DNA from: Rhodospirillales bacterium | Lineage (GTDB): Bacteria > Pseudomonadota > Alphaproteobacteria > MPNO01 > UBA2964 | DNA length: 64,000 nucleotides | Assembly (NCBI GenBank): GCA_038116945.1 | Contig: JAYOEY010000011.1 | Coordinates: 14,480 to 78,479 of the forward strand | Direction: 5' to 3' | Shown: positions 19,451 to 64,000 of the stretch, piece by piece | Numbering within the stretch: the first letter of the stretch is position 1 | Layout of the letters: every line of letters begins with the position of its first letter | Notes under the pieces: model-generated | The model's database searches: none | Seen by the model: the letters and a program-made list of their open reading frames with translations, nothing else | What the model was told of the DNA's origin: nothing | Program-made: the position numbers and the translations under genes

Positions 19451-19465
19451 GCCCGGGGGCAGGCG

Positions 19466-21492: not shown

Positions 21493-21530
21493 GTATATAT
21501 ATGTCCCCAGTACACCAATTGTTGTTGACG
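21493..21530 (+). promoter_or_regulatory. AT-rich near-palindromes, candidate NrdR boxes / promoter of nrdAB
   Basis: cTTGTATATATATGTcc and ACACCAATTGTTGT, about 160-200 bp upstream of the nrdA start. Confidence 0.3.
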
Positions 21531-21694
21531 ATCCGTTAATCCTTCGCCAAACTTCCCGTGTTCCGTCAGGCGAGAGTCAGGAAGGTCTTTTCAGCATCTG
21601 CCCCGTGTGACCCGATCGGGTCGGCAGATGACGGCTCTCCGACTCCGAATCGGTCAAAAATCGCCGGCGGGTTCGGGGTTCGTACAGTAAGCGT

Positions 21695-23614
21695 ATGGGA
21701 GGTTTTGGGGTGTTAGATAACGTAAGTACCGACGAAATTGCGGAAATCTATCAGAACGAGCGCGGCATTCGCATTACCATTGATCGGAGCCGGGATGCGA
21801 AGCTCACCGAATTCGGCAAGGAGACCCTGTCCGACCGGTATCTGATGCCGGACGAGAGCTTTCAGGATCTGTTCGCCCGCGTGACCGCCCATTATGCCGA
21901 CGATTCCAGGCACGCCCAGCGGCTTTACGACTATGCCAGCAATCTCTGGTTCATGCCGGCGACACCCGTTCTGTCAAACGGGGGCACCAGGCGCGGCCTG
22001 CCGATTTCCTGCTTCCTGAACGAAGCGACGGATTCTCTTGAGGGCATCGTCGGGCTGTGGAACGAAAACGTCTGGCTGGCGGCCAAGGGCGGCGGTATCG
22101 GCAGCTACTGGGGCAATCTGCGCTCGATCGGCGAGAAAGTCGGCGCCAACGGCAAGACCTCCGGCATTATCCCCTTCATCCGCGTCATGGATTCCCTGAC
22201 GCTGGCAATCAGCCAGGGCAGCCTGCGCCGCGGGTCGGCGGCAATCTATCTGCCGATCGACCATCCGGAGATCGAGGAATTCATCGAGCTGCGCCGCCCG
22301 ACCGGCGGCGATCCGAACCGCAAGGCGCTCAACCTGCATCACGGCATCCTGCTGACCGACGAGTTCATGCGTCTGGTCGAATCGAACGGCGAACTGCCGC
22401 TCAGGAGCCCCAAGGACCGTCATGTGGTGCGCACGGTGTCCGCCCGCGCGCTGTGGGTCCGGCTTCTGACCTGCCGGGTCGAAACGGGCGAGCCCTATTT
22501 CATCTATATCGACCACGTCAACAAGGCGATCCCCGAGCATCACAAGCTGGCCGGTCTTGACGTCAAGATGTCGAACCTGTGCAGCGAGATCACGCTGCCG
22601 ACCGGGGTCGACAAGGACGGCAACCAGCGGACCGCGGTGTGCTGCCTGTCGTCGCTCAATCTCGAGACCTGGGACGAATGGAACGAGGATCCGCGCTTTA
22701 TCCCGGACGTGATGCGGTTCCTCGACAACGTGCTACAGGACTTCATCGACAATGCGCCGGACGAAATGGCGCGCGCCCGCTATTCGGCGGCCCGCGAACG
22801 TTCCGTCGGGCTCGGCGTCATGGGCATGCATTCCTTCTTCCAGTCCAAGATGATCCCCATCGAGTCGGTGATGGCGAAGGTCTGGAACAAGAAGGTTTTC
22901 AAACATATCCGCGAACAGGCCGATGCCGCGTCGCGCGACCTCGCGGAGGAGCGCGGGGCGTGTCCGGACGCCGCCGATTTCGGGATCATGGAGCGGTTCT
23001 CGAACAAGATGGCGATCGCGCCGACCGCCTCGATTTCGATCATCTGCGGCGGGTCGTCGCCCGGGATCGAGCCGAACGCGGCGAATTCCTTTACTCACAA
23101 GACCCTGTCCGGCTCGTTCAGCGTCAAGAACAAGTATCTGAAGATGCTGCTGGCCGAGAGGGGCAGGGACGATGACGATACATGGTCGTCGATCACCACC
23201 CACGAAGGGTCGGTTCAGCATCTCGATTTCCTGACCGACGACGAAAAGGACGTGTTCAAGACGGCGTTCGAACTCGACCAGCGCTGGATCGTCGAGCTTG
23301 CCGGCGACCGGGCGGAATATATCTGCCAGTCGCAGTCGATCAACGTCTTCCTGCCGGCCGACGTTCACAAGAAGACGCTGCACGACATCCACTGGACGGC
23401 ATGGAAGAAGGGCGTGAAGACGCTTTATTACTGCCGCTCCAAGTCGATCCAGCGGGCCGAGGCGGTGTCGCACAAGCAGGAAGTCTCGACCATGGATGCG
23501 GGCGGCGCGCTCCCGATCCCGTCTCCCGACGGGATACAGATCCCGCTGGCCGCCGCGCCGGCGGCAACGTCGGAGAACGATAACGATTACGAGGAATGCC
23601 TCGCCTGTCAGTAG
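21695..23614 (+). CDS. nrdA: Class I ribonucleoside-diphosphate reductase alpha subunit (no ATP-cone evident)
   Basis: 639 aa; catalytic NLCSEI, active-site cysteines, C-terminal TLYYCRS tail. Confidence 0.75.
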   Translation: MGGFGVLDNVSTDEIAEIYQNERGIRITIDRSRDAKLTEFGKETLSDRYLMPDESFQDLFARVTAHYADDSRHAQRLYDYASNLWFMPATPVLSNGGTRRGLPISCFLNEATDSLEGIVGLWNENVWLAAKGGGIGSYWGNLRSIGEKVGANGKTSGIIPFIRVMDSLTLAISQGSLRRGSAAIYLPIDHPEIEEFIELRRPTGGDPNRKALNLHHGILLTDEFMRLVESNGELPLRSPKDRHVVRTVSARALWVRLLTCRVETGEPYFIYIDHVNKAIPEHHKLAGLDVKMSNLCSEITLPTGVDKDGNQRTAVCCLSSLNLETWDEWNEDPRFIPDVMRFLDNVLQDFIDNAPDEMARARYSAARERSVGLGVMGMHSFFQSKMIPIESVMAKVWNKKVFKHIREQADAASRDLAEERGACPDAADFGIMERFSNKMAIAPTASISIICGGSSPGIEPNAANSFTHKTLSGSFSVKNKYLKMLLAERGRDDDDTWSSITTHEGSVQHLDFLTDDEKDVFKTAFELDQRWIVELAGDRAEYICQSQSINVFLPADVHKKTLHDIHWTAWKKGVKTLYYCRSKSIQRAEAVSHKQEVSTMDAGGALPIPSPDGIQIPLAAAPAATSENDNDYEECLACQ

Positions 23615-23712
23615 GGCGGTAACGGGAACGTTCCCGATTGAGCATTTCCCATGCGACGTACCGGGGCCATGGCGGCCCCGGTCTCGTCGGCGGATGCAAG
23701 AAGGAAGAAGAT

Positions 23713-24675
23713 ATGTCGCTGCTGGAAGAAAAGATCGTCTACAAGCCGTTTCGCTATCCGTGGTGCTACGATGCGTGGCTGACCCAGCAGCGGGTTCACT
23801 GGATCCCGGAGGAAGTGCCGCTCGCCGATGACGTGAAGGACTGGCACAACAAGCTGACTCCTGCGGAACGCCATACGCTGACGCAGATTTTCCGCTTCTT
23901 TACCCAGGCCGATATCGAGGTCAATAACTGCTACATGAAGCATTACACCCAGGTCTTTAAACCGACCGAGGTGCAGATGATGCTGGCGGCGTTCTCGAAC
24001 ATCGAGACCGTGCATATCGCAGCCTATTCCTATCTTCTGGATACGATCGGTATGCCGGAGACGGAATATCAGGCCTTCCTCCACTACAAGGAGATGAAGG
24101 ACAAGTACGACTACATGCAGGGCTTCAACTGCGACAGCAAGGTCGATATCGCCAAGACGCTGGCGGTTTTCGCCGGATTCACCGAGGGGCTCCAGCTGTT
24201 CGCGTCGTTCGCAATCCTCCTCAACTTCCCGCGCTTCAACAAGATGAAGGGGATGGGCCAGATCGTCTCATGGTCGGTACGCGACGAAAGCCTGCACACT
24301 GAATCGATGATCAAGCTGTTCCGCACCTTCGTGTCGGAAAATCCGGAAATCTGGAACCAGGACCTGCAGCGCGAGATCTATCTCGCCTGCAATACGGTGG
24401 TGGAGCATGAGGATGCGTTTATCAATCTCGCCTTCGAACTCGGCGGGGTCGAGGGGCTGACGGCTGCGGAGGTGAAGCAGTATATCCGCTACATCGCCGA
24501 CCGCCGGCTGTCGCAGCTCGGGCTGCAGCCGATCTTCCGGATCGAAAAGAATCCCCTGCCGTGGCTCGACGAAATCCTCAATGGCGTGGAGCACGCGAAT
24601 TTCTTCGAAAACCGGGCGACCGAATATTCCAAGGCCGCGACGCAGGGAAGCTGGGACGACGTCTGGAACGACTGA
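23713..24675 (+). CDS. nrdB: Class I ribonucleotide reductase beta (R2) subunit
   Basis: 320 aa from ATG 23713 (RBS AAGGAAG); ferritin-like di-iron ligands (ETVHIAAYSYLL, VRDESLH); NPLPWLDEIL C-terminal region. Confidence 0.75.
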   Translation: MSLLEEKIVYKPFRYPWCYDAWLTQQRVHWIPEEVPLADDVKDWHNKLTPAERHTLTQIFRFFTQADIEVNNCYMKHYTQVFKPTEVQMMLAAFSNIETVHIAAYSYLLDTIGMPETEYQAFLHYKEMKDKYDYMQGFNCDSKVDIAKTLAVFAGFTEGLQLFASFAILLNFPRFNKMKGMGQIVSWSVRDESLHTESMIKLFRTFVSENPEIWNQDLQREIYLACNTVVEHEDAFINLAFELGGVEGLTAAEVKQYIRYIADRRLSQLGLQPIFRIEKNPLPWLDEILNGVEHANFFENRATEYSKAATQGSWDDVWND

Positions 24676-33837: not shown

Positions 33838-33967
33838 GAACTGTCGGGGATTACGCCGAAAACAGGCCGCGTTGTTTCGCCCATAAATCTTCGCAATGCA
33901 AGTGAATATTTCAGGTTTTTTGCGGCTGGCGGAATCGGTCCGGGGGCGCTTCCGTCGGGCCGGGAAA

Positions 33968-35398
33968 CTACAGGATCTTCCCTGGATTCATGATGCCCCT
34001 GGGGTCGAGCGCATGTTTGATCGATTCCATGACGTCGATGGCGACCGGCGACTTGTAATGGCGCAATTCCTGACGTTTCAGAAGGCCGATTCCATGCTCC
34101 GCGCTGATCGAGCCGCGGAGGCCCGTCGCAATGTCGTGGACGATCCGGTTCAGCTCTTCCTGTCGCGCCATGAAGGCGGCGCCATCGGCTTCCGGGGGCT
34201 GGTTCAGGTTGTAGTGAACGTTGCCGTCGCCGATATGGCCGAACGAACAGATCTTTACGCCCGGCACCGCCTCCGAAACGGCCTTGTTGGCGCGCTCCAG
34301 GAAGACGGGCACCTGCGATACGGGGATCGAAATGTCGTGTTTGATTCCCTTTCCCGCAATCTGCTGCGCCTCCGGAATGGTCTCGCGCAGCTTCCAGAAA
34401 TCCTTTGCCTGAGCCCGGCTTTCGGCGATGGTCGCGTCCAGTACTTCGCCGCGTTCCATCGCGTCGGCGAGGATCGTTTCCAGCGTTTCCCGGAGCGTGC
34501 CGTCGTCATGTCCGGAAGACAGCTCGATCAGAAGATATTCCGGCCATTCCTGCGACAGCGGATCGCGCGTGTCGGGGATATGGTCGAGCACGAACGAGAT
34601 ACCGGTTCGTGCCATCCATTCGAAGGTCGTGACCCTGTCGCCGCTCGCGGTGCGCGCCCGAGCGAGAATTTCGATGGCGGCCGAGGCATCCCGAACCGCG
34701 GCGAACGCGGTTTGAACATCCCGCGGCCGGGGAAAGAGCTTCAGAACCGCCGCCGTGATGATGCCGAGCGTCCCTTCGCCGCCGATGAAAAGCTGTTTCA
34801 GGTCGTACCCGGTATTGTCCTTGCGAAGGGCGGAAAGCCCGTCCCAGATCCTGCCATCCGGCAGGACGACTTCGAGCCCCAGCGCCAGGTCGCGCGCGTT
34901 GCCGTAGCGCAGCACGCCCGTACCGCCCGCGTTGGTAGACAGGTTGCCGCCGATCCGTGCCGTTCCCTCCGCGCCGAGGCTGAGGGGAAACAGCCGGTCG
35001 GCTTCCTCCGCCGCCTTCTGGATATCGGCGAGGATCACGCCTGCTTCCACCGTCATGGTATAGTTGAGCGGGTCGACATCGCGGATCCGGTTCATCCGCG
35101 TCAGGCTCAGGATGATCTCGCTGTTGTCGTCATGCGGCGTGGCGCCGCCGCAAAGACCCGTATTGCCGCCCTGCGGAACGATCGGCGTGCCGGTTTCGGC
35201 GCAGATCGCGACGATCTCCGAAACTTCTTTCGTGCTGGCCGGACGAACCACCATCGGGGTACGGCCTTCGTAATATTTCCGCTGATCGAGAACGTAGGGC
35301 GCGATCTCGGAAGGGTCGGTAATCAGGCCCTTCTCGCCGACGATTGCGGCGATGCGGTCGAGCACGGTCTGACTGACGGGATGGGCTGGAGCGTCCAC
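33968..35398 (-). CDS. FAD-linked oxidase (GlcD / D-2-hydroxyacid dehydrogenase family)
   Basis: 476 aa; FAD-binding PCMH domain (VVRPASTKEVSEIVAICAETGTPIVPQGGNTGL) and C-terminal oxidase domain. Confidence 0.75.
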   Translation of the reverse strand: MDAPAHPVSQTVLDRIAAIVGEKGLITDPSEIAPYVLDQRKYYEGRTPMVVRPASTKEVSEIVAICAETGTPIVPQGGNTGLCGGATPHDDNSEIILSLTRMNRIRDVDPLNYTMTVEAGVILADIQKAAEEADRLFPLSLGAEGTARIGGNLSTNAGGTGVLRYGNARDLALGLEVVLPDGRIWDGLSALRKDNTGYDLKQLFIGGEGTLGIITAAVLKLFPRPRDVQTAFAAVRDASAAIEILARARTASGDRVTTFEWMARTGISFVLDHIPDTRDPLSQEWPEYLLIELSSGHDDGTLRETLETILADAMERGEVLDATIAESRAQAKDFWKLRETIPEAQQIAGKGIKHDISIPVSQVPVFLERANKAVSEAVPGVKICSFGHIGDGNVHYNLNQPPEADGAAFMARQEELNRIVHDIATGLRGSISAEHGIGLLKRQELRHYKSPVAIDVMESIKHALDPRGIMNPGKIL

Positions 35399-35458
35399 GG
35401 ATTTCCTCGTTTTGTACGACAGGCAGACTTAGCCGATAGGCTTAATTCCGGCAAGCCA

Positions 35459-36403
35459 TTAGCCGTGAGCGGCCCGGCGCAGTCGGTCGTTGATGGCCGC
35501 GCCGAGGCCGCTTTCCGGGATGGGCATGACGGCAATACCGGCCGCGTTGAGGGTGTCCAGGCGCCGCATCATGGCGAACAGGTTGGCGGCTGCCTCCCTC
35601 AGATCGCCCGACGGGCTCAGGTTTTCCACAAGATCGGCGCCGTCCGGGACATCGGTCCCGAAAGCCAGCAATGCTTCTCCGGTGCCGACTTCTGTCGCGT
35701 TCAGCCTGAGCGGCGTCTGCGTGGCGTAGTGGCTCGCCAGCTGGCCGGGCGAGCGCGGGTGCGCCTCATCGCCAGCCTCGGCAATCTCTCCCATGGTCTC
35801 CGCCAGTTCGGCCTTCGTCACGCCGCCCGGTCGCAGAATTGCCGGAAGGCTCCCCGTCAGGTCCAGTACCGTCGATTCCACGCCGACCGAACAAGGGCCG
35901 CCGTCGAGGATCAGGTCCACCGCTTCGCCGAGCGACTCCGCTACATGATCCGGCGTTGTCGGGCTGACGGCCCCCGACCGGTTTGCGCTCGGTGCGGCAA
36001 TGGGCCGGTCGGCGCGCGTTATCAAGGCGAGGGCGACCGGATGCGCTGGAATACGGATTGCCAGCGTGTCCAGACCGGCGCCCGCAAGAAGGCTGACGGG
36101 GCAGTCTTTCCGGCGCGGCAGGACGAGCGTCAGCGGTCCGGGCCAGAATTTTTTCGCCAACCGATCGGCGCGGCCATCGAAATGAACCAGGGCCCGGGCT
36201 GCGGCCGGGGTGGCGACGTGGACGATCAGCGGGTTGAATGCCGGCCTGCCCTTGGCGGCGAAGACCGCGGCGACGGCCTCGCCGTTGGTGGCGTCGCAGC
36301 CTAGCCCGTAGACGGTTTCCGTCGGGATGGCGACGAGCAGACCGGACCGGATGAGCGCGGCCGCCTCGCCGATCGCTGTTTCTGTGGCAGCGGCGATCTT
36401 CAG
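35459..36403 (-). CDS. L-threonylcarbamoyladenylate synthase (Sua5/YciO/YrdC/TsaC family, with Sua5 C-terminal domain)
   Basis: AIPTETVYGLGCDA signature; no ATG/GTG start clear of cysQ, so a start at CTG 36403 is inferred; the ORF track opens at 36535. Confidence 0.65.
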   Translation of the reverse strand: MKIAAATETAIGEAAALIRSGLLVAIPTETVYGLGCDATNGEAVAAVFAAKGRPAFNPLIVHVATPAAARALVHFDGRADRLAKKFWPGPLTLVLPRRKDCPVSLLAGAGLDTLAIRIPAHPVALALITRADRPIAAPSANRSGAVSPTTPDHVAESLGEAVDLILDGGPCSVGVESTVLDLTGSLPAILRPGGVTKAELAETMGEIAEAGDEAHPRSPGQLASHYATQTPLRLNATEVGTGEALLAFGTDVPDGADLVENLSPSGDLREAAANLFAMMRRLDTLNAAGIAVMPIPESGLGAAINDRLRRAAHG

Positions 36404-42510: not shown

Positions 42511-42661
42511 GGGATCTCTCCATTTATTCTCATGCGAGAATAATAGGGGTGAATCGATCCGGAGAAAACAGTCGTCGCGTCGATTCCGCCAAGGGGTGAC
42601 GCCCCACCGGCGTTACGATAAAACTCGGCCTTCTCGTCAATACGGAAAGTTCTGAAAAATA

Positions 42662-44752
42662 ATGGCTTCGGATTCGCGTTACCGGCTGGGTGTCGATGTC
42701 GGCGGCACTCATACCGACCTGGTTCTCCTCGATGTCGATTCCGGTGAAATCGCTGTCGAAAAGGTGTCCTCGACCCCGGCCAATCCCGCCCTTGGTGTTC
42801 TGAACGGGGTCAATAATTTTATCGCCAGGGGCACGGCGCCCGGTTCCATTGAGTTTTTCAGCCACGGGACGACGATCACGACCAACGCGCTGCTGCAGAT
42901 GCGGGGCGCGCGCGTCGGGCTGATGATCACAAAGGGCTATCGCGCAATCCAGGAAGTCCAGACCCAGGCGCGCGACGGCAATCCGTTCGATTATTTTTAC
43001 GAAAAGCCGGAACCCATCGCGCCGCAGAGCATGACGCGCGAAATAGCCGGCCGGATCGGCTGGGAAGGCGCAGAGATCGAGCCGCTCGACGAGGACGCCG
43101 TACGCATCGCTACCCGCGCCTTCCGCGACGACGGGGTAACGTCGATTGCGGTCTGCTACCTGTTTTCCTACGCCAATACCTCGCATGAGGACCGTACGCG
43201 CGCGATCGTCCAGGAGGAATTTCCGGAGGCACATGTGTCGCTCTCGTCGGAGGTGCTGCCGCGTATCCGGGAATGGCCGCGGCTGTCGACGACGTTGCTC
43301 AACGCCTATCTGGGTCCGGTTCTGGTGGATTACATCGCCGACCTGAACAGGGGGCTGGACGAGGGCGGGGTGGAGACCCAGCAGAGATTCCTGATGCAGT
43401 CGAACGGCGGCGTCATGCCTTTCGCTGCAGCGGTTCAGGGCGGCAAGACGGTCTATACGCTGTTCTCGGGCCCGGCGGCGGGCGCGCAGGCGAGCGCCTA
43501 TCTGGCGGGCGACGATGCAATGAAAGGTATCGTGACGCTGGATATGGGCGGAACATCCGCCGATATCGCCTTTATCGAAGGCGGAACGCCGCTCGAGGTA
43601 ACCGAAGTGATGCTGGCGCGGCGACCGCTGGGCGTTCCGGCGCTCGACATGACGACGATTTCCGCCGGCGGCGGCTCGATCGCCTGGGTCGACAAGGGCG
43701 GCTTTCTCTGCGTCGGACCGCACAGCGCGGGCGCCGATCCGGGGCCGGCCTGCTACGGCAAGGGCGGCGACGAGCCGGCGGTTACGGACGCCGATATCGT
43801 GCTCGGATACCTCAACCCCGATTATTTCCTCGGCGGCTCGCAGTCGCTCGATGTCGCGGCGTCTGAAAAGGCGCTCAGGGAGAAGGTCGGCGATCCGCTC
43901 GGCATGTCGATCCGCGAGGCGGCGGCAGGCATCCGCCGCATCGTCGATCTGCGCATGGCGGACGAGGTCAAGGTGTTCGGCGCGAAGCGGGGCGTGAACC
44001 CGCAGGAATTCACGCTGCTGCCGTTCGGCGGCGCCGGCGCGGTGCATGCCGGTTCGGTCGCCGACGAACTCGGCATCAACCGGATTTTCGTTCCGCCCCG
44101 TCCCGGCGCGTTTTCGGCGCTGGGGCTTCTTTGTACCGACGTCGTCCACGATTACGTGCGGTCCGAGCTCCGTCCCATGGAGCAGGTGACGGCCGATCAC
44201 GCCGAGGCGGTGTTCTCCGAACTCGAAGCGCGCGGCCATGCCGAACTGGCCGAAGAGGGTCTGTCCGACGATGGCGCGCGCTTCGAACGCGAACTCGACA
44301 TGCGCTATACGGGGCAGGGGTACGAGCTTCGCGTGTCGCTCGACGGGCTCGGGTCGGGAGGCCTGAGCGCCGACGACATGGCCGGTGCGCGAGACCGGTT
44401 CGACGACCGGCATGCGCAAATCCACGGCCATGCCGCCAAGGACCGGTCGGTGGAGATCGTTTCCTATCGCGTGCGGTTGCGGGTCGCCGTGCCGAAATAC
44501 GCGCCGCGGCCGGTGGGGGACCCTGTGGAGGCGCCCGCGCCCGCCGATTCCGTCAAGGGAACCCGCACGGTCTATTTTACCGCCGATACCGGCACGGAAA
44601 CCACGCTTTACGAACGCGACCGGCTGCCGCTCGGAGCGTTCGTCGATGGGCCCGCCATTATCGAGCAGTTCGATTCGACCATCGTCGTGCCCGACAAATG
44701 GCGCGCATCGGTTGACGCATACCGGAACCTGATCCTGACCCGGGAGAGATAG
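42662..44752 (+). CDS. Hydantoinase A / N-methylhydantoinase A-type subunit (HyuA family)
   Basis: 696 aa; N-terminal GVDVGGTHTDLVL. Confidence 0.8.
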   Translation: MASDSRYRLGVDVGGTHTDLVLLDVDSGEIAVEKVSSTPANPALGVLNGVNNFIARGTAPGSIEFFSHGTTITTNALLQMRGARVGLMITKGYRAIQEVQTQARDGNPFDYFYEKPEPIAPQSMTREIAGRIGWEGAEIEPLDEDAVRIATRAFRDDGVTSIAVCYLFSYANTSHEDRTRAIVQEEFPEAHVSLSSEVLPRIREWPRLSTTLLNAYLGPVLVDYIADLNRGLDEGGVETQQRFLMQSNGGVMPFAAAVQGGKTVYTLFSGPAAGAQASAYLAGDDAMKGIVTLDMGGTSADIAFIEGGTPLEVTEVMLARRPLGVPALDMTTISAGGGSIAWVDKGGFLCVGPHSAGADPGPACYGKGGDEPAVTDADIVLGYLNPDYFLGGSQSLDVAASEKALREKVGDPLGMSIREAAAGIRRIVDLRMADEVKVFGAKRGVNPQEFTLLPFGGAGAVHAGSVADELGINRIFVPPRPGAFSALGLLCTDVVHDYVRSELRPMEQVTADHAEAVFSELEARGHAELAEEGLSDDGARFERELDMRYTGQGYELRVSLDGLGSGGLSADDMAGARDRFDDRHAQIHGHAAKDRSVEIVSYRVRLRVAVPKYAPRPVGDPVEAPAPADSVKGTRTVYFTADTGTETTLYERDRLPLGAFVDGPAIIEQFDSTIVVPDKWRASVDAYRNLILTRER

Positions 44753-44753
44753 A

Positions 44754-46439
44754 ATGGCTGAAACCACCGCTGCAACCATCGATCCCGTTACCGTCCAGGT
44801 ACTGCGCAACAAGGTCGCGAGCCTCGTCGACGAGATGCACTATCATTTCTACCGGTCGGGTTATTCGACGATCATCCGCGAATCGCGCGATTTCTCCTGC
44901 GTCATTCTTGACCGGCGCGGCCGGCTGATCGTGCCGCCGCCGATGTTTTTTCACGGCATCGCCTACCGGACGTTCGTGGACAGCATCTTCTCGCTTTACA
45001 GGGAAGACGAAATAGAGGACGGCGACGTCTTCGTCTCGAATCATCCGTACCAGGCGGGGATGCCGCATGTCTCCGACATGGGGTTCGTTGCGCCGATCTT
45101 CGCACAGGGAACGCTGGTGGGATTCTCGGCATCCATCGCGCACAAGGCCGATATCGGTGGCACCAACCCGGGAAGCACGTCGGCCAACTCGACCGAGCTC
45201 TATCACGAAGGACTCCTGCTGCCGCCCATCAAGTTTCACCGTGCCGGAGAGCTGGATGAAGACCTGCTGCGGGTGATCCTCGGCAACAGCCGCCATCCGG
45301 ATCTCGTGCGGGGCGACATTCATGCGCAGGTCGCGGCGACCAACATGGGCGTCGAGCGGATGAAGGAAAATGCCGAGCGGTTCGGCGCCGACACGGTAAT
45401 CGCCGCGTTCGACGCCATTCTGAACGGGGCGGCGGAGGAGCTGCGGGCCGCCATCGCGGCGCTGCCCGACGGGACTTCCTCGGCCGAAGGCTACATGGAC
45501 GACGACGGGGTCGAGCGCGACAAGCCGGTCAAGTTCGCCGTGACCATCACCATCGAAGGCGACAGGGCAATCTTCGACTATTCCGACAGCGGACCGCAGG
45601 CCAAGGGTCCGGTCAATCTGCGTCCCGCCATGGTCGAGGCCTGCACGTTCTACTGCCTCGTTGGCGCGCTTGGGCCGCACGACCTGCATTACAACGGCGG
45701 TATGGGAGACGTGGTCGAGCTGCGTTTCGCCCCCAACACCGTGACGAATGCGAGCCCGCCCGCGCCGGTCTCGTCCTATCAGAAAGCGAATTTGAAGCTG
45801 GTCGACGTGATCCTCGAGGCGATGGCGCATTTCGCGCCGGAGCGCGCGATCGCCGGGTCGGGGTCGTCCGGCTCGCTGCTGATTTCCTGGCAGGGCGGCG
45901 GACGCGAAGGCCATTCGACCATGCAGTACGAGATCTTCGGCTCGGCCTATGGCGGCGGCAAGGGCCATGACGGGACGTCGATGACGGCGACCCATCTGTC
46001 GAACCTGCATGTCACGCCGATCGAAATTCTCGAATCCGAATTTCCCTGCCGTATTACCGAGTTCTCGTTCATTCCGGATTCCGGCGGGCCGGGCGAATAT
46101 CGCGGCGGCGTCGCCTTCCGGCGGCGCTACGAGCTGCTGCAGGATGCGATGGTGGTGCGCCGCTACGAGCGCGCCAAATTTCCGCCGACCGGCATGGAAG
46201 GCGGCAAGGACGGGCGCGCCAGCCGGTTTGTCTCCATCGGCCATAACGGCGACCAGACCGACCTGCCGGCGGCGGGGCGGTTCGACATGAAAGCCGGCGA
46301 GGGGTTCTTCCTCGACAAGGCGGGCGGCGGCGGGTACGGCGATCCGCAGAAGCGCGATCCCGAAGCGATCCGTCGCGATCTGAAGGAAGGGTACGTCACG
46401 CCCGAAGGCGCGAAGCGGGATTACGGATTCGAAGGGTAA
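44754..46439 (+). CDS. Hydantoinase B / oxoprolinase-type subunit (HyuB family)
   Basis: 561 aa; starts 2 nt after the hyuA stop. Confidence 0.8.
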   Translation: MAETTAATIDPVTVQVLRNKVASLVDEMHYHFYRSGYSTIIRESRDFSCVILDRRGRLIVPPPMFFHGIAYRTFVDSIFSLYREDEIEDGDVFVSNHPYQAGMPHVSDMGFVAPIFAQGTLVGFSASIAHKADIGGTNPGSTSANSTELYHEGLLLPPIKFHRAGELDEDLLRVILGNSRHPDLVRGDIHAQVAATNMGVERMKENAERFGADTVIAAFDAILNGAAEELRAAIAALPDGTSSAEGYMDDDGVERDKPVKFAVTITIEGDRAIFDYSDSGPQAKGPVNLRPAMVEACTFYCLVGALGPHDLHYNGGMGDVVELRFAPNTVTNASPPAPVSSYQKANLKLVDVILEAMAHFAPERAIAGSGSSGSLLISWQGGGREGHSTMQYEIFGSAYGGGKGHDGTSMTATHLSNLHVTPIEILESEFPCRITEFSFIPDSGGPGEYRGGVAFRRRYELLQDAMVVRRYERAKFPPTGMEGGKDGRASRFVSIGHNGDQTDLPAAGRFDMKAGEGFFLDKAGGGGYGDPQKRDPEAIRRDLKEGYVTPEGAKRDYGFEG

Positions 46440-53226: not shown

Positions 53227-54324
53227 TCAGCCGCGCCGTCGCAGTCCGAGGATGCCCACAAGACCGAATGCAAACAGCCAGACGGCGCCAGGCGCCGAGA
53301 TCTCTACCGTGGGTACTTCGTTGGAGACCTGATTGAAGAACCAGTTCGATCCGGTATTGAAGAAAATGGCCGTGCTGGTGATGACGGCATGATCCGCCGT
53401 CAGGAGCGAGCCGTTCGATTGCGACACCGCAAACGTCGTCTGGGCGTTGTCGAAATCGATGACGATGTCGGCGCCGGCGTCGAGCCCGACGAAATCGAGC
53501 GTCACCGTATAGTCGTCCAATGTACCCGCGATCTCGTCGATACCGGCGTTTGCGTAAAGCAGGCCGGCGACGTCGTCCATTCCGAGGGTGCGTTGATGCT
53601 CGTTCGTGAAGGCGCCTTGCTGCATGACGGCTTCGGTGTTGACGAAGCCCAAAGCGGCCGCCACCGCCCGGTCGGCGTTGGCGGAGTAGGTATTGCCGAC
53701 CGGCAGATCCGCGAGATTCCGGCTATAGGTCGTCGAATCGACAACGCCCGCTCCAATGCTGACCGGATTGTTGTCGGCTCTCCGGAAATAGTTGAGGTTG
53801 ACGTCGTCTCCGCGAATGTCGTCGGCCGTCCCGATGATGCCGTCGGCTCCGGGATTGAAGTCAAACGTGTTGTTCGCGCCGTCGGTGGAAATCGTATAGT
53901 TCGTATTGCTGCCGCTGACGCCCGTCTGCACGCCCAGGTTGGTATGCGCCAGCCCGAGCGAGTGACCCATCTCGTGCAGCAGCGTGGATTCGAAATCGAC
54001 CTGTGAAGCGCCGATGCCGGCGGAACTGATATTGCCTGTCGTCGGCACCAGACCGTTCCAGGTATTCACGACATTCTGAGTCGGAATGACCATCTGGGCG
54101 GCAAATGTGCTGGTCGGGTCGATGCCGACGGAAATGACGAGATTGCCGCCTAGCCCGTTATAGCCGAGCGCGTGCGTTACGATATCGACGCCGTTTGCTT
54201 CGCCTGCGAAGACATAGGCAAAGGAATTCGCATCCCGGGGCGCGGACAGCGTCATCGTGGCTCCCAGGACGGCGCACACAGACCCCAGATATCTGAAAAA
54301 TCCGATCTTCGCCCCTCGGATCAT
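53227..54324 (-). CDS. Secreted metzincin zinc metalloprotease with PEP-CTERM-like C-terminal anchor
   Basis: Signal peptide; HEMGHSLGLAH matches HEXXHXXGXXH; C-terminal VPTVEISAPGAVWLFAFGLVGILGLRRRG (TM + RRR). Confidence 0.6.
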   Translation of the reverse strand: MIRGAKIGFFRYLGSVCAVLGATMTLSAPRDANSFAYVFAGEANGVDIVTHALGYNGLGGNLVISVGIDPTSTFAAQMVIPTQNVVNTWNGLVPTTGNISSAGIGASQVDFESTLLHEMGHSLGLAHTNLGVQTGVSGSNTNYTISTDGANNTFDFNPGADGIIGTADDIRGDDVNLNYFRRADNNPVSIGAGVVDSTTYSRNLADLPVGNTYSANADRAVAAALGFVNTEAVMQQGAFTNEHQRTLGMDDVAGLLYANAGIDEIAGTLDDYTVTLDFVGLDAGADIVIDFDNAQTTFAVSQSNGSLLTADHAVITSTAIFFNTGSNWFFNQVSNEVPTVEISAPGAVWLFAFGLVGILGLRRRG

Positions 54325-56888: not shown

Positions 56889-57165
56889 CGCGACCGGCTG
56901 GCCCGGCGCTCGACCGGACGCCGGTTTCCCCTTTCCCTTGTTTTGCAGACGATCCCGTGAAACAAACGGGTGCGAACTGACCGGTTCGGTGAACATGAGA
57001 TGTCCGACATGATCGTTGTTGTCTCCTTTGGATGGCGCCCGGGACGGGCCAGCGTCCGCCGCCCGCTCGACAGGTCTTGCATGGTCGCGATTGCCGGTTT
57101 AAATGCCAGCGGATCGGCGACGGAGAAAACCGGTCCGGCGGCAGACCGGACCTGACGGGCGAGCG

Positions 57166-58509
57166 ATGGCGGGAAACGGCGTAAAACGCGCTCTGGCGAT
57201 GAAGAATCTCCGGTCTCAGATGATGATCGTGGTTCCGGCGCTGCTGGTTGTGATCGCAGGGTTCGTTCTGGCGTATCAGTTTGTCGGCCCCGCCCCACCC
57301 GATCGCGTTCTGATGGCGACCGGATCCGACAGCGGCGCCTATCACGCTTTCGGGAAACTCTATGCCGAGCGGTTCCGCAAGGAAGGCATCGAACTGGCGC
57401 TCAGAACGACGGCCGGCTCATCGGAAAACCTGTCCCTGATTGGCGATCCGGCGAAAAACGTGCCGGTCGCCTTCGTCCAGGGAGGCGTGGCGGTGGCGGA
57501 CGATTTTCCCGATCTGCGTTCGCTCGGCAGCGTCTATTTCGAGCCTTTATGGGTATTCGTCAGGGGAAGCGAACCCCTCCGCCAGCTGACCGGTCTGGCC
57601 GGGCGAAGAATTGCGGTTGGCGGCGAGGGGAGCGGCACCCGGACGCTCGCGCTGAAACTGCTGGCCGAGAACGGGATTGCCGCGGGGAAGGCAACACTTC
57701 TGGAGATAGGCGGACCCGAAGCGGCGGCTGCGCTGATCGATGGCTCTGTCGACGCGGCGTTCTTCATCACCTCCGCCAACTCGCGGACGGTCCGCGATCT
57801 GGTTGGTGCGGACGGCATTCACCTGACCAGTTTCGAGCGGGCGGAGGCGTATCTCAGGCGTCACCGCTACCTGTCCGCGGTAACGCTGCCGCGGGGGGGT
57901 ATCGATCTGGCGCGCGACCTGCCGCGCCGGGATGTCGTGCTGCTTGCGCCGACCGCGACGGTCGTGGCCAATCCCGATCTTCATCCCGCCCTGATCGATC
58001 TTTTCCTGACGACCATGCGCGACGCGCACCGCGCCGGCGGATTGCTCGAGACGCCGGGAGAATTTCCAACGGCAAAGTTCGTCACCTTTCCCCTCGAGCC
58101 GGCGGCGGACCGTTTCTACGAGCGGGGTCCTCCTTTTCTGCAGCGATATCTGCCGTTCTGGGCGGCCAATCTGGTGGATCGTCTGAAGATCATGATCCTG
58201 CCGCTGCTGACTCTTCTCTACCCGCTCTTCAAGGTATTGCCGCCCATGTATAACTGGCGGATGAAGACGCGGGTGAATCGCTGGTATCGCGATCTGCAGG
58301 CTCTTGACGACAGGGTGCGGTCGAATGCGATCTCGAATGCCGACGCGAAGGCTGAAATCGATCGTATCGAGCGCGCAGTCGAGCGGGTCACTGTGCCGGC
58401 CGGATTCGCATCGAGCGCATATACGCTCCGCCTTCACATCGATTTTCTGCGCCACCGTATCGAGGACGGCGGCGGCGAGGCCGGACCGGCGGACTCGGCT
58501 TCTGTCTGA
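57166..58509 (+). CDS. TAXI-family solute-binding domain protein with an N-terminal TM anchor, a C-terminal TM helix and a cytoplasmic coiled-coil tail
   Basis: N-terminal LRSQMMIVVPALLVVIAGFVL; TAXI-like core (MATGSDSGAYHAFG...); second TM LKIMILPLLTLLYPLF then about 100 aa of charged/coiled tail. Confidence 0.5.
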   Translation: MAGNGVKRALAMKNLRSQMMIVVPALLVVIAGFVLAYQFVGPAPPDRVLMATGSDSGAYHAFGKLYAERFRKEGIELALRTTAGSSENLSLIGDPAKNVPVAFVQGGVAVADDFPDLRSLGSVYFEPLWVFVRGSEPLRQLTGLAGRRIAVGGEGSGTRTLALKLLAENGIAAGKATLLEIGGPEAAAALIDGSVDAAFFITSANSRTVRDLVGADGIHLTSFERAEAYLRRHRYLSAVTLPRGGIDLARDLPRRDVVLLAPTATVVANPDLHPALIDLFLTTMRDAHRAGGLLETPGEFPTAKFVTFPLEPAADRFYERGPPFLQRYLPFWAANLVDRLKIMILPLLTLLYPLFKVLPPMYNWRMKTRVNRWYRDLQALDDRVRSNAISNADAKAEIDRIERAVERVTVPAGFASSAYTLRLHIDFLRHRIEDGGGEAGPADSASV

Positions 58510-58560
58510 ACGCCTCTAACGTCCGAAATTCAAGTTGTCCGGGTGTACGCCTGCCTGCCG

Positions 58561-58737
58561 TCAGTGGCAGGGAAAGGCCATGCTGTGCCGGCTGTCGTGC
58601 GCAGCGTTGTGGATCGTGTCCGAATGCGCGAAGCCGACGCCAAGTATGAGAAACGCGCCCAGCAGGATTGCGCAGATCGCCGGTATCGTCGGCGCTGCTG
58701 ATGTTGCGGTCTCAATGGTTTGTGCGTTTCTGTCCAT
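58561..58737 (-). CDS. cbtB: CbtB-like small membrane protein (putative cobalt/nickel transporter subunit), missing from the ORF track
   Basis: 58 aa: MDRNAQTIETATSAAPTIPAICAILLGAFLILGVGFAHSDTIHNAAHDSRHSMAFPCH; one TM plus the CbtB signature C-terminus HD.RH...FPCH. Confidence 0.55.
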   Translation of the reverse strand: MDRNAQTIETATSAAPTIPAICAILLGAFLILGVGFAHSDTIHNAAHDSRHSMAFPCH

Positions 58738-58861
58738 CGTTCTGTATCCGCCGAAATGCCAGCCTGCCTGCCGGAGGATACTGCCCCTCCGATGAAATGT
58801 ATACGGCGGCGTCCGAACGGGCGATCAGACCCGGACGGACGCAAGCCCCGCAAGGGCCCGG

Positions 58862-60151
58862 CTAGACCGTCGTCCTGATTTTGCCGGGAGCCGCCCTGAA
58901 GTCTTCCTGGCAGGCCTCGGCGTAATTCAGTTCGGGATCGAGGACCGTTGCAATCGACCTCACCTTCATGTGCTCCGGGGCACGGCCCGGCGGCATGATG
59001 CCCTTATCTTTCAGGTCGAGCGCCGCGCGCCGCAGGCGGTTCCGGGTCAGCACGATGCCGTAATCGCACTGCACCAGGTTTTCCCGCGACCGGTCGACGA
59101 TCGGACCCATGGATTCCTGAAGGCTGCCGTCCTGCATCCCGAATCCCGCGATACCGGAATAGGATTCGCCACGCTTTTGCGCCTCCCGGTCCATAAGGTA
59201 GTCGTTGCTCTTGTTCTGGACCGGAATGTAGGTGCCCGGAATAACGGCCACGTGCACGCCCTTGCCGTCGAGGCAGGCCTGACGTTCTACGTCCGTGAGG
59301 GGACGGTTGGGGTGGTAGTCGTAGCTCCAGGTCCAGCAGTTCTCGTCGTTGATGGGAACCCAGAAATGCCCGTGTTGCGGATGATCCGCGCGCGGCGGGA
59401 TCATGGTGAAGCACGGCATGACCCACTGGGTGACGCGCCAGTAATACTTGCCTTCTTCCGCGTTGCGGCGGGCGCCGATGTAAAGACCGCCCTCGGATTC
59501 GGCGACTTCGAAATAGGGCTTCAAATCGCCGAGATTGTAATTGTTGGCCTTGGCGCCCTGAAACAGCGGGTCGCGCTCCAGCTCCTGGGAATGCAGGAAC
59601 GACACATGGCTCGAGTCGATTCCGCCTTCAAGCGCCTGAAGCCAGTTGCATTCCTGGAGGCGCTTGGTCGAGACCGTCTGTTCGGGCGCGACCGTGCAGA
59701 ACTCCCATGCGGGTTCCGGCGGGGTATTCGCGGGATCGCCCATATAGGTCCACAGCACGTCCCCGACCTTGATCAGCGGATAGGCCTGAAGCTTGACCTC
59801 CTCGCGGAACTTGGCGTTGTCCGGTTCCGACGGAATCTCGACGCAGTTTCCTTCCACGTCGAATTTCCAGCCGTGGTAGGGGCAGCGCAGCCCGCAATCC
59901 TCGTTGCGGCCGAACCACAGCGAAACGCGGCGGTGCGCGCAGAATTCCTCGATCAGACCGTACCGGCCTTCCGAGTCGCGGAACGCAATCATCTTTTCGC
60001 CCAGCAGTTCGCACCGAACCGGCGGGCAGTCGTTCTCGGGCAGCTCTTCGGCCAGCAGGGCCGGCAGCCAGTACTGACGGAACAGCTCGCCCATCGGGGT
60101 CCCCTTGTCCGTCTGTGTCAGCAGATCGTTCACTTCCTTGCGAAGCGACAT
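58862..60151 (-). CDS. Rieske non-haem iron aromatic-ring-hydroxylating oxygenase alpha subunit (phthalate-dioxygenase-like)
   Basis: 429 aa from ATG 60151; Rieske CAHRRVSLWFGRNEDCGLRCPYHGW; mononuclear-iron catalytic domain. Confidence 0.7.
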   Translation of the reverse strand: MSLRKEVNDLLTQTDKGTPMGELFRQYWLPALLAEELPENDCPPVRCELLGEKMIAFRDSEGRYGLIEEFCAHRRVSLWFGRNEDCGLRCPYHGWKFDVEGNCVEIPSEPDNAKFREEVKLQAYPLIKVGDVLWTYMGDPANTPPEPAWEFCTVAPEQTVSTKRLQECNWLQALEGGIDSSHVSFLHSQELERDPLFQGAKANNYNLGDLKPYFEVAESEGGLYIGARRNAEEGKYYWRVTQWVMPCFTMIPPRADHPQHGHFWVPINDENCWTWSYDYHPNRPLTDVERQACLDGKGVHVAVIPGTYIPVQNKSNDYLMDREAQKRGESYSGIAGFGMQDGSLQESMGPIVDRSRENLVQCDYGIVLTRNRLRRAALDLKDKGIMPPGRAPEHMKVRSIATVLDPELNYAEACQEDFRAAPGKIRTTV

Positions 60152-60243
60152 GGTTCCTCTCCTCCTCTTTTGCGCATCGCCTCTCGCCGGGCCGCGCAGA
60201 AATCTCGGGTCCGGGCGCGAAATCTTCCGAAACAAACCCTCGC

Positions 60244-60268
60244 CATTGCCAAAATCTGAGCGGCAATG
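60244..60268. promoter_or_regulatory. 7-bp perfect inverted repeat in the divergent oxygenase/hydrolase promoter
   Basis: CATTGCC-aaaatctgagc-GGCAATG. Confidence 0.3.
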
Positions 60269-60456
60269 CAATTCCATGCCGGTGGCACGGTTATGTCCAG
60301 AAGCGATGCGTCGCCGGGGACCGCCAATCGGCAGAAGAACTAAAGGAACCTGCCTTTTGCGTCAATGCCGGAGGGATATTCCGGCGTGCTTGCCGCGAGC
60401 GGCCGGAAACACCATTATCCTGCGCGTTCGGACAGGCAGAAAACGGGGCCGAAAGG

Positions 60457-61311
60457 ATGCCGACAGCAGACATCGACGGGATCGAAACGCGTTATGAGGT
60501 GATGGGCGACGGTCCGGCCATTTTAATGTACTCGCCGGGCGGATTCGATGCGCGGATCGAGCAATGGTCGGACCTCGGCGTTTACAAACGCATCCGGCTG
60601 CTCGACTACCTGCCGGAAAGATATCGCTGCATCCTGTTCGACCGGCGCGAGAACGGGCAATCCGGCGGCCGCGTCGAGCGAATTACCTGGGACCATTACG
60701 TGCGGCAGGGAGCCGGTCTGCTGGACGCGCTGGGCGTCGAAAAGGCTCATGTCATGGGCGGCTGCATGGGATGCTGTCCGGTCTCGGCGTTCGGCGCAGC
60801 GTTGCCCGGCCGCACGCTTTCAATGGTGCATTACTGGCCGGTCGGCGGCGCCAAATACCGGATAAGTAGCCACCAGCGTTTTGCCCGGCATTTGGCGTTT
60901 GTCGAGGAAAACGGGCTGCAAGCGGTCGTCGATCTGGTGCGGAGCCACGACAAAAACTTTTCTTCCGATCCGCGCGGTGGCCCATGGGGCCAGCCGATCC
61001 GCAATTCAGATGCCTTTGCCGACGCCTACGCCGCGCTGGATCGTTCGAAATACCTGCTGACCGTTACCGCCATGGTACGCGGGCTGATGGACCGGGACAC
61101 TTCGCCGGGTGCGGAGCCGGAGGAGCTGATGCGGCTCGACATTCCGGCCCTGATCGTGCCCGGCAACGATCCGTTCCATGCAACGTCGGCGGCGCGCTAC
61201 CTGCATGAATGTCTCGAAGGCTCCCAATACTGGGACATGCCGGTGGACGATCAGACCGAGGACAACGCGCCGGGGCGGATTCTTGATTTTCTGGACGGAA
61301 TTTCCGCCTGA
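60457..61311 (+). CDS. alpha/beta-hydrolase fold protein
   Basis: 284 aa from ATG 60457; nucleophile-elbow-like HVMGGCMG. Confidence 0.6.
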   Translation: MPTADIDGIETRYEVMGDGPAILMYSPGGFDARIEQWSDLGVYKRIRLLDYLPERYRCILFDRRENGQSGGRVERITWDHYVRQGAGLLDALGVEKAHVMGGCMGCCPVSAFGAALPGRTLSMVHYWPVGGAKYRISSHQRFARHLAFVEENGLQAVVDLVRSHDKNFSSDPRGGPWGQPIRNSDAFADAYAALDRSKYLLTVTAMVRGLMDRDTSPGAEPEELMRLDIPALIVPGNDPFHATSAARYLHECLEGSQYWDMPVDDQTEDNAPGRILDFLDGISA

Positions 61312-62253
61312 TCAGGCATTCAGGTTCAGCGTCGATTTTGCGAACAGGTCATCGAGCGCCATCGGGCCGGGGATGATTTTCTGGGTCACCGCATGCGCCA
61401 TCAACCCTTCGAGCGTGTCGCGGTTGGGCTCGATGCCGTAGGGCAGCGGATCGTCCAGCGTCTCCATGACCGCCATATGTACCCTGTCGGCGCGCGTCGG
61501 CTCCGAAATCTGCCCGGCTTTCAGCGCCGCAACATATCGCCGCTTCGATTCTGCGAATGCCTCGAACACCTGAACGGCAACGTCGGGGTTTTTCGCAAGC
61601 ACCTCGTCGCTGATCGCGACCGTGTGGTTGATCGGATAGAGCCCGCGCCCCCTGAACGCGGCGAGACCGGCCTCGAACTCGTTCGGGATGAGTTGACCGA
61701 TATTCTCGTTCTTGAACGTGGCGCCCACCGCGGCGACAAGATCGCCCGATGTCAGGTGTGCTTCCAGATCACCGTCTTCCAGAGGTACGACGTTATCCGG
61801 CGCCTGATACTGCGCCACGTGTTCGTCGCCTGATGGCGCCCAGGTGATCGACGACAGATCGACGTCGTACTCGTCCTGAATGATGGCACGCGCCCAGACG
61901 CCGGTGGTGACCGTATAGCCGCGATTGACGCCGACCCGCTTGCCGGCGAGGTCGGCCGGAGATTTAAGGCCCGACGGCACGTGATGGGCGATGGCGCCAT
62001 GATGGAAGTCGCGCACCAGAAAGACCGGAATCGCGGTGAATTTCACGCCGTGCGCCTTGGCGCAGATATAGGTGGTCAACGCCATCTCGCAGACGTCGAA
62101 CTCCATCTCCCGCACCATGCGGCGGAATCCCTGCACGAGGACGGGGATCTCCTCCCAGTCCATCTCGAAATCGGGAAGGGTAACCTCTCCTTCCTTGAGC
62201 GCCCGGTTGTTGCCCTGTGTGCGCGATACCGCGTGCAGTCTGGTCTTGCTCAT
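61312..62253 (-). CDS. 4,5-dihydroxyphthalate decarboxylase-like protein
   Basis: 313 aa; PVFLVRDFHHGAI, LAGKRVGVNRGYTVTTGVWARAIIQDEYDVDL resemble the PhtD/OphC family. Confidence 0.55.
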   Translation of the reverse strand: MSKTRLHAVSRTQGNNRALKEGEVTLPDFEMDWEEIPVLVQGFRRMVREMEFDVCEMALTTYICAKAHGVKFTAIPVFLVRDFHHGAIAHHVPSGLKSPADLAGKRVGVNRGYTVTTGVWARAIIQDEYDVDLSSITWAPSGDEHVAQYQAPDNVVPLEDGDLEAHLTSGDLVAAVGATFKNENIGQLIPNEFEAGLAAFRGRGLYPINHTVAISDEVLAKNPDVAVQVFEAFAESKRRYVAALKAGQISEPTRADRVHMAVMETLDDPLPYGIEPNRDTLEGLMAHAVTQKIIPGPMALDDLFAKSTLNLNA

Positions 62254-62295
62254 CCTTTTTTCCTGTCTTTCTTTCTCTTGTTTCTGTCGTTGAAA

Positions 62296-62586
62296 TCAGC
62301 AGCACTCGCCCTCGCCGAGATCCTCCAGCGCCGGCAGCAGCCAGGCGACCGGCAGGTCGGCGTCTGTGACGTCGGCGACGCGAGAGAAGATTTTCAGCCG
62401 GTAACGCTTCTCTCCCTTCCAGAAAATAGCGTTCGTTTCGTGGGGCGGGAAACCCGGCTTGGTGCCCCGGTCCTCGGAGACCAGCACGATCGCGTCGTCA
62501 TCGATGGAAAATCGGTGCCGCAAAAGGCCTTCGACGCGCGAAATGTCGCCAAGCGTGTTTGCTTCCGGTCCAAGCCGTCTGAACAT
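62296..62586 (-). CDS. Hypothetical small protein (96 aa), tentative
   Basis: Terminal part of a long minus-strand ORF that otherwise runs antisense to the ADH gene; fills a 455-bp gap; no recognisable domain. Confidence 0.25.
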   Translation of the reverse strand: MFRRLGPEANTLGDISRVEGLLRHRFSIDDDAIVLVSEDRGTKPGFPPHETNAIFWKGEKRYRLKIFSRVADVTDADLPVAWLLPALEDLGEGECC

Positions 62587-62709
62587 TTTCGTCGGTGTCC
62601 CGACTCCCTTCTTTATTCCGGCCAACACGCGACCCAGCTCGTATGCCCGGTTGCCGCGACTTTGCCGCTTTGCTAAATCAGGGTCAACATCATATCGGGA
62701 GAGAACAAC

Positions 62710-63816
62710 GTGGCAGAAAAAGTAGTCGCCGCCGTACGGACGGCGCCCCAGACGACCGAATTCCGCGAATACGACATGCCGGACATTCCGGAGGAAGCCG
62801 CGCTTCTGAAAGTCGAGGTCGCGGGTATCTGCGGCACCGACGTCAAATTCTATTCCAAGCCGCCATTCGAAGGCCCGGTCATCATGGGGCACGAGAATAT
62901 CGGCTACATCGCCAAGGCCGGGAAGGTGTTCCAGGAGCGCAAGGGGCTCAAGGAAGGCGATCTCGTGTTCGTCGAACATTATGTCGGCTGCATGAACTGC
63001 GAACACTGCCACCGCGGCGACTACCGGCTCTGCATGTTTACCGACTGGCGCAAATGCCCCGAAGGGCTGCGTTTCGGCTATACGCTGGCCGAACGCGCGC
63101 CGCATCTGTTCGGCGGGTTCGCCCATTACATGTACCTGCCGTGGAATTCCGTGATCCACAAGGTGCCGGACGGGCTGTCGCCTGAATATGCCGGCGTCGT
63201 CACGCCGATGGCGAACGGCATCCAGTGGGCGCTGTTCGATTGCCAGGTCGGCTACGACAGCAAGGTCCTGATCCAGGGGCCGGGCCAGCAGGGATTGTGC
63301 AACACCATCGCGTCCAAGACGGCCGGCGCGTCGCTGATCATCGTTACCGGAACCAGCAAGGACAAGAAACGCCTCGACGTCGCGAAGAAACTCGGCGCGG
63401 ATTACACCATCGTGGTGGACGAGGAAGACCCGCTGGAGCGGATCATGGAAATCACCAATGGCGAGGGGCTCGACGTTTCGCTCGACTGCACGGCCGGCGC
63501 GGGCACGATCCCGACGCTGCTCGGCATCGAAGCGCTCAAGCGCAAGGGCGGCACGCTGCAGTTCCAGGGCGAGGACGTCAACGAGTTCCCTGCCTTCCCG
63601 ATGAACAAGGTCGGCAACAAGTACATCACCATCAAGGCGGCCCGCGGCCACAATTACCAGAGCTGCGAGCTGGGGCTGAAACAGCTTGCCTCCGACCGGT
63701 ACGACATCGGCCTGATTACCACGCACAAGTACGGCCTCAAGGACGTGCACGAGGCGATCAATGCGGTCGGCGGCAGCGGCGACGTGATCCACTGCTCGCT
63801 GATGCCGTGGGAGTGA
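62710..63816 (+). CDS. Zn-dependent alcohol/diol dehydrogenase (MDR family)
   Basis: 368 aa; GHENIGY, structural-Zn cysteines CMNCEHCHRGDYRLC, GPGQQGL Rossmann. Confidence 0.75.
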   Translation: MAEKVVAAVRTAPQTTEFREYDMPDIPEEAALLKVEVAGICGTDVKFYSKPPFEGPVIMGHENIGYIAKAGKVFQERKGLKEGDLVFVEHYVGCMNCEHCHRGDYRLCMFTDWRKCPEGLRFGYTLAERAPHLFGGFAHYMYLPWNSVIHKVPDGLSPEYAGVVTPMANGIQWALFDCQVGYDSKVLIQGPGQQGLCNTIASKTAGASLIIVTGTSKDKKRLDVAKKLGADYTIVVDEEDPLERIMEITNGEGLDVSLDCTAGAGTIPTLLGIEALKRKGGTLQFQGEDVNEFPAFPMNKVGNKYITIKAARGHNYQSCELGLKQLASDRYDIGLITTHKYGLKDVHEAINAVGGSGDVIHCSLMPWE

Positions 63817-63826
63817 GCACCCCGCT

Positions 63827-64000
63827 TTGACGCAAGCGCCCGGTAGCGACGAACGGATTCCGGTCACTGTCGTCACCGGGTTTCTCGGCGCGGGCAAGAC
63901 GACGCTCGTCAACCGGCTGCTGGCGGACATCGCCGGCAAGCGCTACGCCGTCATCGTCAACGAGTTCGGCGATATCGGCATCGACGGCGACCTGATCGCC
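63827..64000 (+). CDS. COG0523-family G3E GTPase (CobW/zinc metallochaperone-like), N-terminal fragment; continues past the window end
   Basis: IPVTVVTGFLGAGKTTLVNRLL (P-loop) and YAVIVNEFGDIGIDGDL; start tentatively TTG 63827. Confidence 0.55.
   Translation, partial: MTQAPGSDERIPVTVVTGFLGAGKTTLVNRLLADIAGKRYAVIVNEFGDIGIDGDLIA

Follow-up and report, generated by a model that had tools for sequence, protein, structure and literature searches.

An intact cbtB gene in a Rhodospirillales bacterium, very probably orphaned by a lineage-specific deletion of cbtA

A small gene on the minus strand of a 64-kb stretch of Rhodospirillales DNA (hereafter the window), flanked by the gene for a Rieske oxygenase and by a convergent gene for a solute-binding protein, belongs to the cbtB family, and we consider it very probable that it is a genuine cbtB which was orphaned when its cbtA partner was deleted in this lineage. 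Its family is known and its unusual context can be accounted for; the case would be one of ordinary gene loss, and no new system. An earlier note, made from the letters of the window, had described an unannotated CbtB-like gene of 58 aa here and had proposed either that it is an orphan or decaying copy or that its product works with a different partner, such as the Rieske oxygenase next to it.

The ATG-initiated ORF at 58561..58737 on the minus strand translates to MDRNAQTIETATSAAPTIPAICAILLGAFLILGVGFAHSDTIHNAAHDSRHSMAFPCH, the same peptide as had been read there before, and its assignment to CbtB was confirmed when the peptide was scored against the family profiles. The 58-aa protein matches PF09489 with 70.7 bits against a gathering score of 27 (E=1.2e-19) and the NCBIfam model TIGR02459 with 81.1 bits against a cut-off of 64.4 (E=6.2e-23). 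A hydropathy scan places a single TM segment at about residues 18-36 (peak 2.53), and the C-terminus is a His/Cys-rich tail (AHSDTIHNAAHDSRHSMAFPCH). In an alignment of the window CbtB with 20 homologues from a protein search, all 26 invariant columns are kept, H38, H43, H47, H51, C57 and H58 among them, together with seven of the eight nearly invariant ones, and the start codon aligns with the starts of the homologues. As both cut-offs are passed and the invariant residues, the start and the TM segment are retained, 58561..58737 is, judging from its sequence, a genuine and intact cbtB and not a chance ORF. The geometry of the gap was also as had been described, with 352 bp in all, of which 124 bp form the leader (58738..58861) and 51 bp the 3′ gap (58510..58560).

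When the window CbtB was used to query 5.8 billion proteins, 149 matches were returned, the top one being 78% identical. PF09489 is present in each of the 120 matches listed (the best 120 of the 149), which are 58-67 aa long, come from marine Alphaproteobacteria and, where the source gives a name, are mostly called CbtB or ‘cobalt transporter’. The named marine alphaproteobacterial CbtB proteins are 60-78% identical to the window protein and share with it their length (58 aa), a single TM helix and the invariant C-terminal motif AHSDT.HNAAHD.RH..AFPCH; homologues of this same length are regularly called as genes, and named CbtB, by JGI and NCBI. No record of the exact window CbtB or of the exact Rieske protein was returned by exact-protein look-ups.

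The CbtAB system was reportedly predicted from comparative genomics of B12 regulons, by Rodionov et al. in 2003. By its family resemblance, the window CbtB would be a single-pass inner-membrane peptide with a Co2+-binding, His/Cys-rich tail, and CbtB is predicted to act as an accessory subunit of the multi-TM CbtA permease; metal binding, expression and a current function are what we infer for the window copy. A paper of 2016 presents CbtA as a predicted inner-membrane channel specific for Co, at that time still awaiting experimental confirmation (PMC4771312). In Methylococcus capsulatus, CRISPRi knock-down of cbtB relieved cobalt toxicity and gave better growth with cobalt at 1 uM, an indirect phenotype that fits a role in import (PMC13108547).

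That cbtA should follow cbtB, which the earlier note had taken as the canonical order, proved true of each of the nine CbtB clusters examined on their contigs, where cbtA starts 12-24 bp after cbtB. These nine contexts comprise cbi/cob clusters, a cobNW / cobT-cobS cluster, a locus with a Co-type nitrile hydratase, one with znuA-type ABC genes and the sister locus described below, and none of them is a CbtB-only locus. Where cbtBA lies in B12 clusters (L001-L009, L181-L189) or in contig L178, the CbtB is 60-71% identical to that of the window and has the same architecture, but unlike the window copy it is always paired with cbtA and flanked by cob/cbi or nitrile hydratase genes. Contig L178 is of some interest in its own right: at 4001-8180 cbtB-cbtA adjoins a convergent NMT1-type binding protein gene, an esterase gene and the beta and alpha subunit genes of a Co-type nitrile hydratase, which suggests that enzymes unrelated to B12 metabolism also receive cobalt by way of cbtBA, and the arrangement of cbtBA facing an NMT1-type gene recurs there.

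Compared with this family norm, the window cbtB has no cbtA, no cob/cbi cluster and no cobalamin riboswitch. The absence of a cbtA partner, as claimed in the earlier note, was verified both for the adjacent positions and for the window at large, as none was found in the 64 kb by tblastn, for which the queries were five CbtA proteins representing three sequence types (the best E, ~0.03, is noise). Two ORFs were considered as places where cbtA might lie and were rejected, namely a 302-aa minus-strand ORF (57547..58455) under the 3′ part of the solute-binding-protein ORF and a 107-aa ORF (58530..58853); neither has a CbtA signal, and tblastn was also empty. The locus therefore lacks the adjacent PF09490 / TIGR02458 gene that marks a CbtAB two-gene unit and, because CbtA is missing, by inference it could not encode the predicted CbtAB transporter by itself. 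Neither a cobalamin riboswitch nor a cob/cbi neighbourhood gives the window a B12-related context, and a Pfam scan of ~50 further ORFs across it found no cob/cbi gene, B12-dependent enzyme or nitrile hydratase; no other cobalt enzyme was found in the window either.

Several other features of the window were recorded along the way. A metal-homeostasis cluster at 17620-20029 consists of an ArsP_2 ‘10TM heavy-metal exporter’ gene (17620-18870, minus strand, 429 bits), a DtxR/MntR-type metal-dependent repressor gene divergent from it (18926-19450, plus strand) and, after the latter, a cytochrome b561 gene (19466-20029, minus strand). At 21695-24675 lie the genes for both subunits, large and small, of a B12-independent (class I) ribonucleotide reductase, and their 418-bp leader (21277-21694) has no Rfam match. 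C-terminal PEP-CTERM sorting motifs occur in two proteins (12463-13083 and 53227-54324), the second of which also has a zinc-metalloprotease HEXXH-type region with weak Pfam matches; a PEP-CTERM protein is likewise encoded right after cbtA in L005. Five long ORFs of 475-802 aa have no Pfam match (62296-63939, 42530-44812, 33896-36304, 6113-7747 and 9606-11033); in some of these GC3 is low, and they may have been picked on the wrong strand; for 62296-63939 the gene order is conserved with L014 and the outgroup loci.

Evidence for what happened at the locus comes from a sister lineage. Eight metagenome contigs (L010-L017) hold the two CbtB clusters closest to the window protein, P0001 (78% identical) and P0002 (74%), and in blastn they match the window over 57235..63000 at 78-86% nucleotide identity, covering a 547-aa ORF, an SsuA-like gene, an alpha/beta-hydrolase gene, the Rieske gene, cbtB and the TAXI-like solute-binding-protein gene. 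Gene order and orientation are as in the window over at least 5.7 kb, the small ORF included, and the encoded proteins are 97% (Rieske; L010, L012 and L014, with a dN/dS of 0.017), 74-78% (CbtB) and 82% (TAXI-like; L015) identical to their window counterparts. The difference lies downstream of cbtB, where the sister contigs have a 238-aa CbtA starting after 24 bp and the window has the 51-bp spacer. The sister order is Rieske, cbtB and cbtA on one strand, facing the TAXI-like gene, which cbtA overlaps by its last 36 bp, and the cbtA product is a genuine CbtA, scoring 245 bits with TIGR02458 (cut-off 182.9). Contig L012 was considered as a second locus without cbtA and was set aside: its sequence after cbtB is the start of the L010 cbtA, and the contig ends there.

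The spacer at 58510..58560, to which no strand is assigned, thus occupies the place of ~703 bp in the syntenic relatives, as delimited by the blastn boundaries, and the window lacks the cbtB-cbtA spacer and the whole of cbtA but for the 36 bp that overlap the TAXI-like gene. Homology ends at window position 58559 (L014 4490), at the cbtB stop codon, and restarts at 58465 (L014 5238), the TAXI-like stop codon lying 44 nt from this right-hand boundary in both sequences. The last 15 TAXI-like residues are wholly different from those of the sister lineage, their number being unchanged, and neither the stretch encoding this tail nor the 51-bp spacer gives a convincing alignment to the relatives.

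As to the direction of the change, dS between the window and the sister lineage is 0.99 for cbtB and 0.99 for the Rieske gene; this equality indicates that the two genes diverged together, that cbtB was not acquired separately and that it would already have stood at this position in the common ancestor. Given a shared ancestral cbtB, and cbtB-cbtA pairing in nine of nine clusters, loss of cbtA in the window lineage appears far more parsimonious than its gain in the sister lineage, and it is from parsimony together with this universal pairing that we infer loss rather than gain. The ancestral order would then be the one kept in the sister lineage, with Rieske, cbtB and cbtA followed by the convergent TAXI-like gene. 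In the window lineage ~0.7 kb, beginning immediately past the cbtB stop codon and reaching to that of the TAXI-like gene, would have been exchanged for the 51-bp spacer, a deletion that would have taken out cbtA and left both flanking genes intact.

A mechanism by slippage was considered. The relatives have an 8-bp direct repeat, TCAGGCGC, at L014 4517 and 5194 (also in L010 and L015), with one copy on codons 2-4 of cbtA and the other on the TAXI-like stop codon, so that the two bracket the missing segment almost exactly. The product predicted from slippage between the two copies aligns with the window no better than shuffled sequences do, 287 of 500 shuffles scoring as well, and for this reason the mechanism is unsupported. 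The same comparison bears on whether cbtA is present in the real genome and was merely lost from the assembled sequence. Among the matches listed, no independent contig of the window lineage was found that would confirm the junction; against such an artefact, the junction is not a clean repeat collapse, since its 51-bp spacer is unique and differs from the predicted repeat-mediated product, and both flanking genes have proper stop codons, the TAXI-like tail having the same length as in relatives. We therefore regard an assembly artefact as very improbable, and retain a true deletion as the explanation.

Regulatory signals at the locus were also compared with those of relatives. The 124-nt leader on the minus strand (58738..58861) contains a stable hairpin and no riboswitch; the hairpin, at about 58809..58842, falls just after the Rieske stop codon and has no U-run, the leader as a whole folds with an MFE of -56.8 kcal/mol (z = -2.2), and by blastn its nucleotide sequence is not conserved with the sister lineage. 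The statement that no B12 riboswitch stands at cbtB was correct, as a scan of all 64 kb against Rfam gave no match that attained a gathering score. A degenerate cobalamin riboswitch in the leader was rejected as well, nothing cobalamin-like being found at E<=10 in 58400..60500. What did not hold is the accompanying assumption that a riboswitch canonically precedes cbtB: it is not universal, and was seen at one of the eight relatives' loci scanned, that of L005, which in this differs from the window (6678-6871, 114 bits). None was found in the cbtA-bearing sister contigs L010, L012 and L014-L016, nor in two of the three B12-cluster loci scanned. Since sister contigs with cbtA are also without a riboswitch, its absence is uninformative about the window copy. 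A consensus scan of 58300..59000 found neither a sigma-70-like promoter nor an intrinsic terminator, and the Shine-Dalgarno-like GGCGGA upstream of the cbtB start codon is weak.

Upstream of some of the other cbt genes, a further gene was observed. In three contexts a signal-peptide protein of ~355-390 aa with no Pfam or NCBIfam match is encoded directly upstream of cbtB-cbtA (L005 6903-7970; L187 2768-3931, identical in L188 and L189; L184 3473-3970), the copies having 53-66% aa identity, and in L005 the riboswitch at 6678-6871 precedes the 355-aa gene, which in turn precedes cbtB. Some cbt operons may include this protein as a third component, regulated by B12 and so far undescribed; the window encodes no homologue of it.

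The genes on either side of cbtB are relevant to the proposal that CbtB has found another partner. Upstream, on the minus strand at 58862..60151, lies the gene for a 429-aa Rieske [2Fe-2S] / LigXa_C-type oxygenase (PF00355, 64.2 bits; PF19301, 112.5 bits), whose ORF runs in frame to 60277; all homologues start at 60151, 42 codons less, and this is probably the real start. The convergent gene on the plus strand at 57103..58509 encodes an NMT1_3 / TAXI-like solute-binding protein (PF16868, 69.8 bits), which scores 74.7 bits with TIGR02122, below the cut-off of 84.35, and of which the ~165 C-terminal residues of the ORF are without a Pfam domain. Orthologous Rieske loci were listed from GTDB representative genomes (at least 80) and from JGI metagenomes (at least 80), with 63-85% aa identity to the window protein. 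The closest match among these is 85% identical, and the nearest loci share their upstream gene order with the window. Neither cbtB nor cbtA nor the TAXI-like gene occurs in any of the 160 listed, so that, among the loci listed, cbtB adjoins the Rieske gene in the window and in its sister lineage and nowhere else. In an outgroup genome, UBA830, the Rieske orthologue is on one contig (L022) and cbtBA is on another (L181), between cobNW and cobT/cobS. A conserved Rieske-CbtB partnership was accordingly dropped, there being 160 orthologous Rieske loci without cbtB.

In its broader form this proposal would have CbtB recruited to some other partner or function, be it metal delivery to the Rieske oxygenase, the TAXI-like or a TRAP transporter, or a CbtA-independent role. 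It could draw on the shared strand of cbtB and the Rieske gene, which ends 124 bp before cbtB with no consensus terminator in the interval, on the strong constraint on a cbtB that has no adjacent cbtA, and on the occurrence of cbtBA outside B12 clusters, as in L178 with its Co-type nitrile hydratase and convergent NMT1 gene. Yet the sister lineage, with the same neighbours, has kept a normal cbtA, the listed Rieske loci carry none of the three genes, a Rieske protein requires Fe and not Co, and no CbtB-only locus was met in the nine contexts inspected. We hold such a recruitment to be improbable, and the earlier suggestion of the Rieske oxygenase as an alternative partner was not borne out: on the sequence evidence, a functional link between the Rieske protein and CbtB has no support. 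The locus does not tie cobalt transport to the Rieske oxygenase, and deletion of cbtA from a once normal cbtBA pair remains the preferred account.

Considering next whether the orphaned gene is decaying or in use, the pattern of substitution is informative. Whole-gene dN/dS of cbtB against L010 is 0.185, the differences being concentrated in the N-terminal 25 codons (dN/dS 0.40), which are variable throughout the family. The conserved half, codons 26-58, has 11.5 differences that are synonymous and 1.5 that are nonsynonymous, a dN/dS of 0.024 at a dS of ~1. A rough model, which places half of this dS on the window branch and sets the neutral nonsynonymous rate equal to the synonymous rate, would lead one to expect ~38 nonsynonymous changes in codons 26-58 under full neutrality on that branch. 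Under the same model a neutral phase would leave so few changes with P = 0.076 if it took up 15% of the branch and P = 0.019 at 20%, which makes a neutral phase beyond ~15-20% of the window branch unlikely. Strong purifying selection on these codons over a dS of ~1 would thus mean either that cbtA was deleted recently or that CbtB is still used. Of the two descriptions offered in the earlier note, orphan was apt, the lack of an adjacent cbtA being explained by the deletion, and decaying is not supported by the sequence, as the ORF is intact, all invariant residues are kept and dN/dS is ~0.02 in the conserved half.

It is possible, although doubtful, that cbtB is a non-functional remnant in which cbtA was lost too recently for disabling mutations to have accumulated. 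Judging from the family, both subunits would be needed for the predicted transporter, a consensus scan recognised no promoter at the locus, and a deletion within roughly the last 15% of the branch fits the substitution counts. The intact ORF, the full set of invariant residues and the dN/dS of 0.024 in the conserved half speak against it, as does a rough integration by which, were the time of deletion uniform along the branch, only ~8% of cases (3/38) would leave two or fewer nonsynonymous changes. Should the orphaned CbtB still be in use, it would most plausibly, though this is conjecture, work with a CbtA whose gene lies at another place in the genome, such as a B12 cluster; a related genome keeps its cbtBA in a cluster of this kind.

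For annotation, the value of the finding is that a conserved 58-aa gene lies in a gap which an ORF-length cut-off had left empty, and the label for the locus should be cbtB, with its cbtA partner deleted. There is a small chance that CbtB is under selection with no CbtA anywhere in the genome and, if this were true, a 58-aa His-rich membrane peptide would have an autonomous role and be more than an accessory of CbtA; it could be a metal-binding or chaperone peptide anchored in the membrane, for instance, or belong to another transporter as a subunit. The window lineage offers a natural cbtB-only genotype beside a sister lineage with cbtBA, and this pair could be used to ask whether CbtB acts without CbtA.
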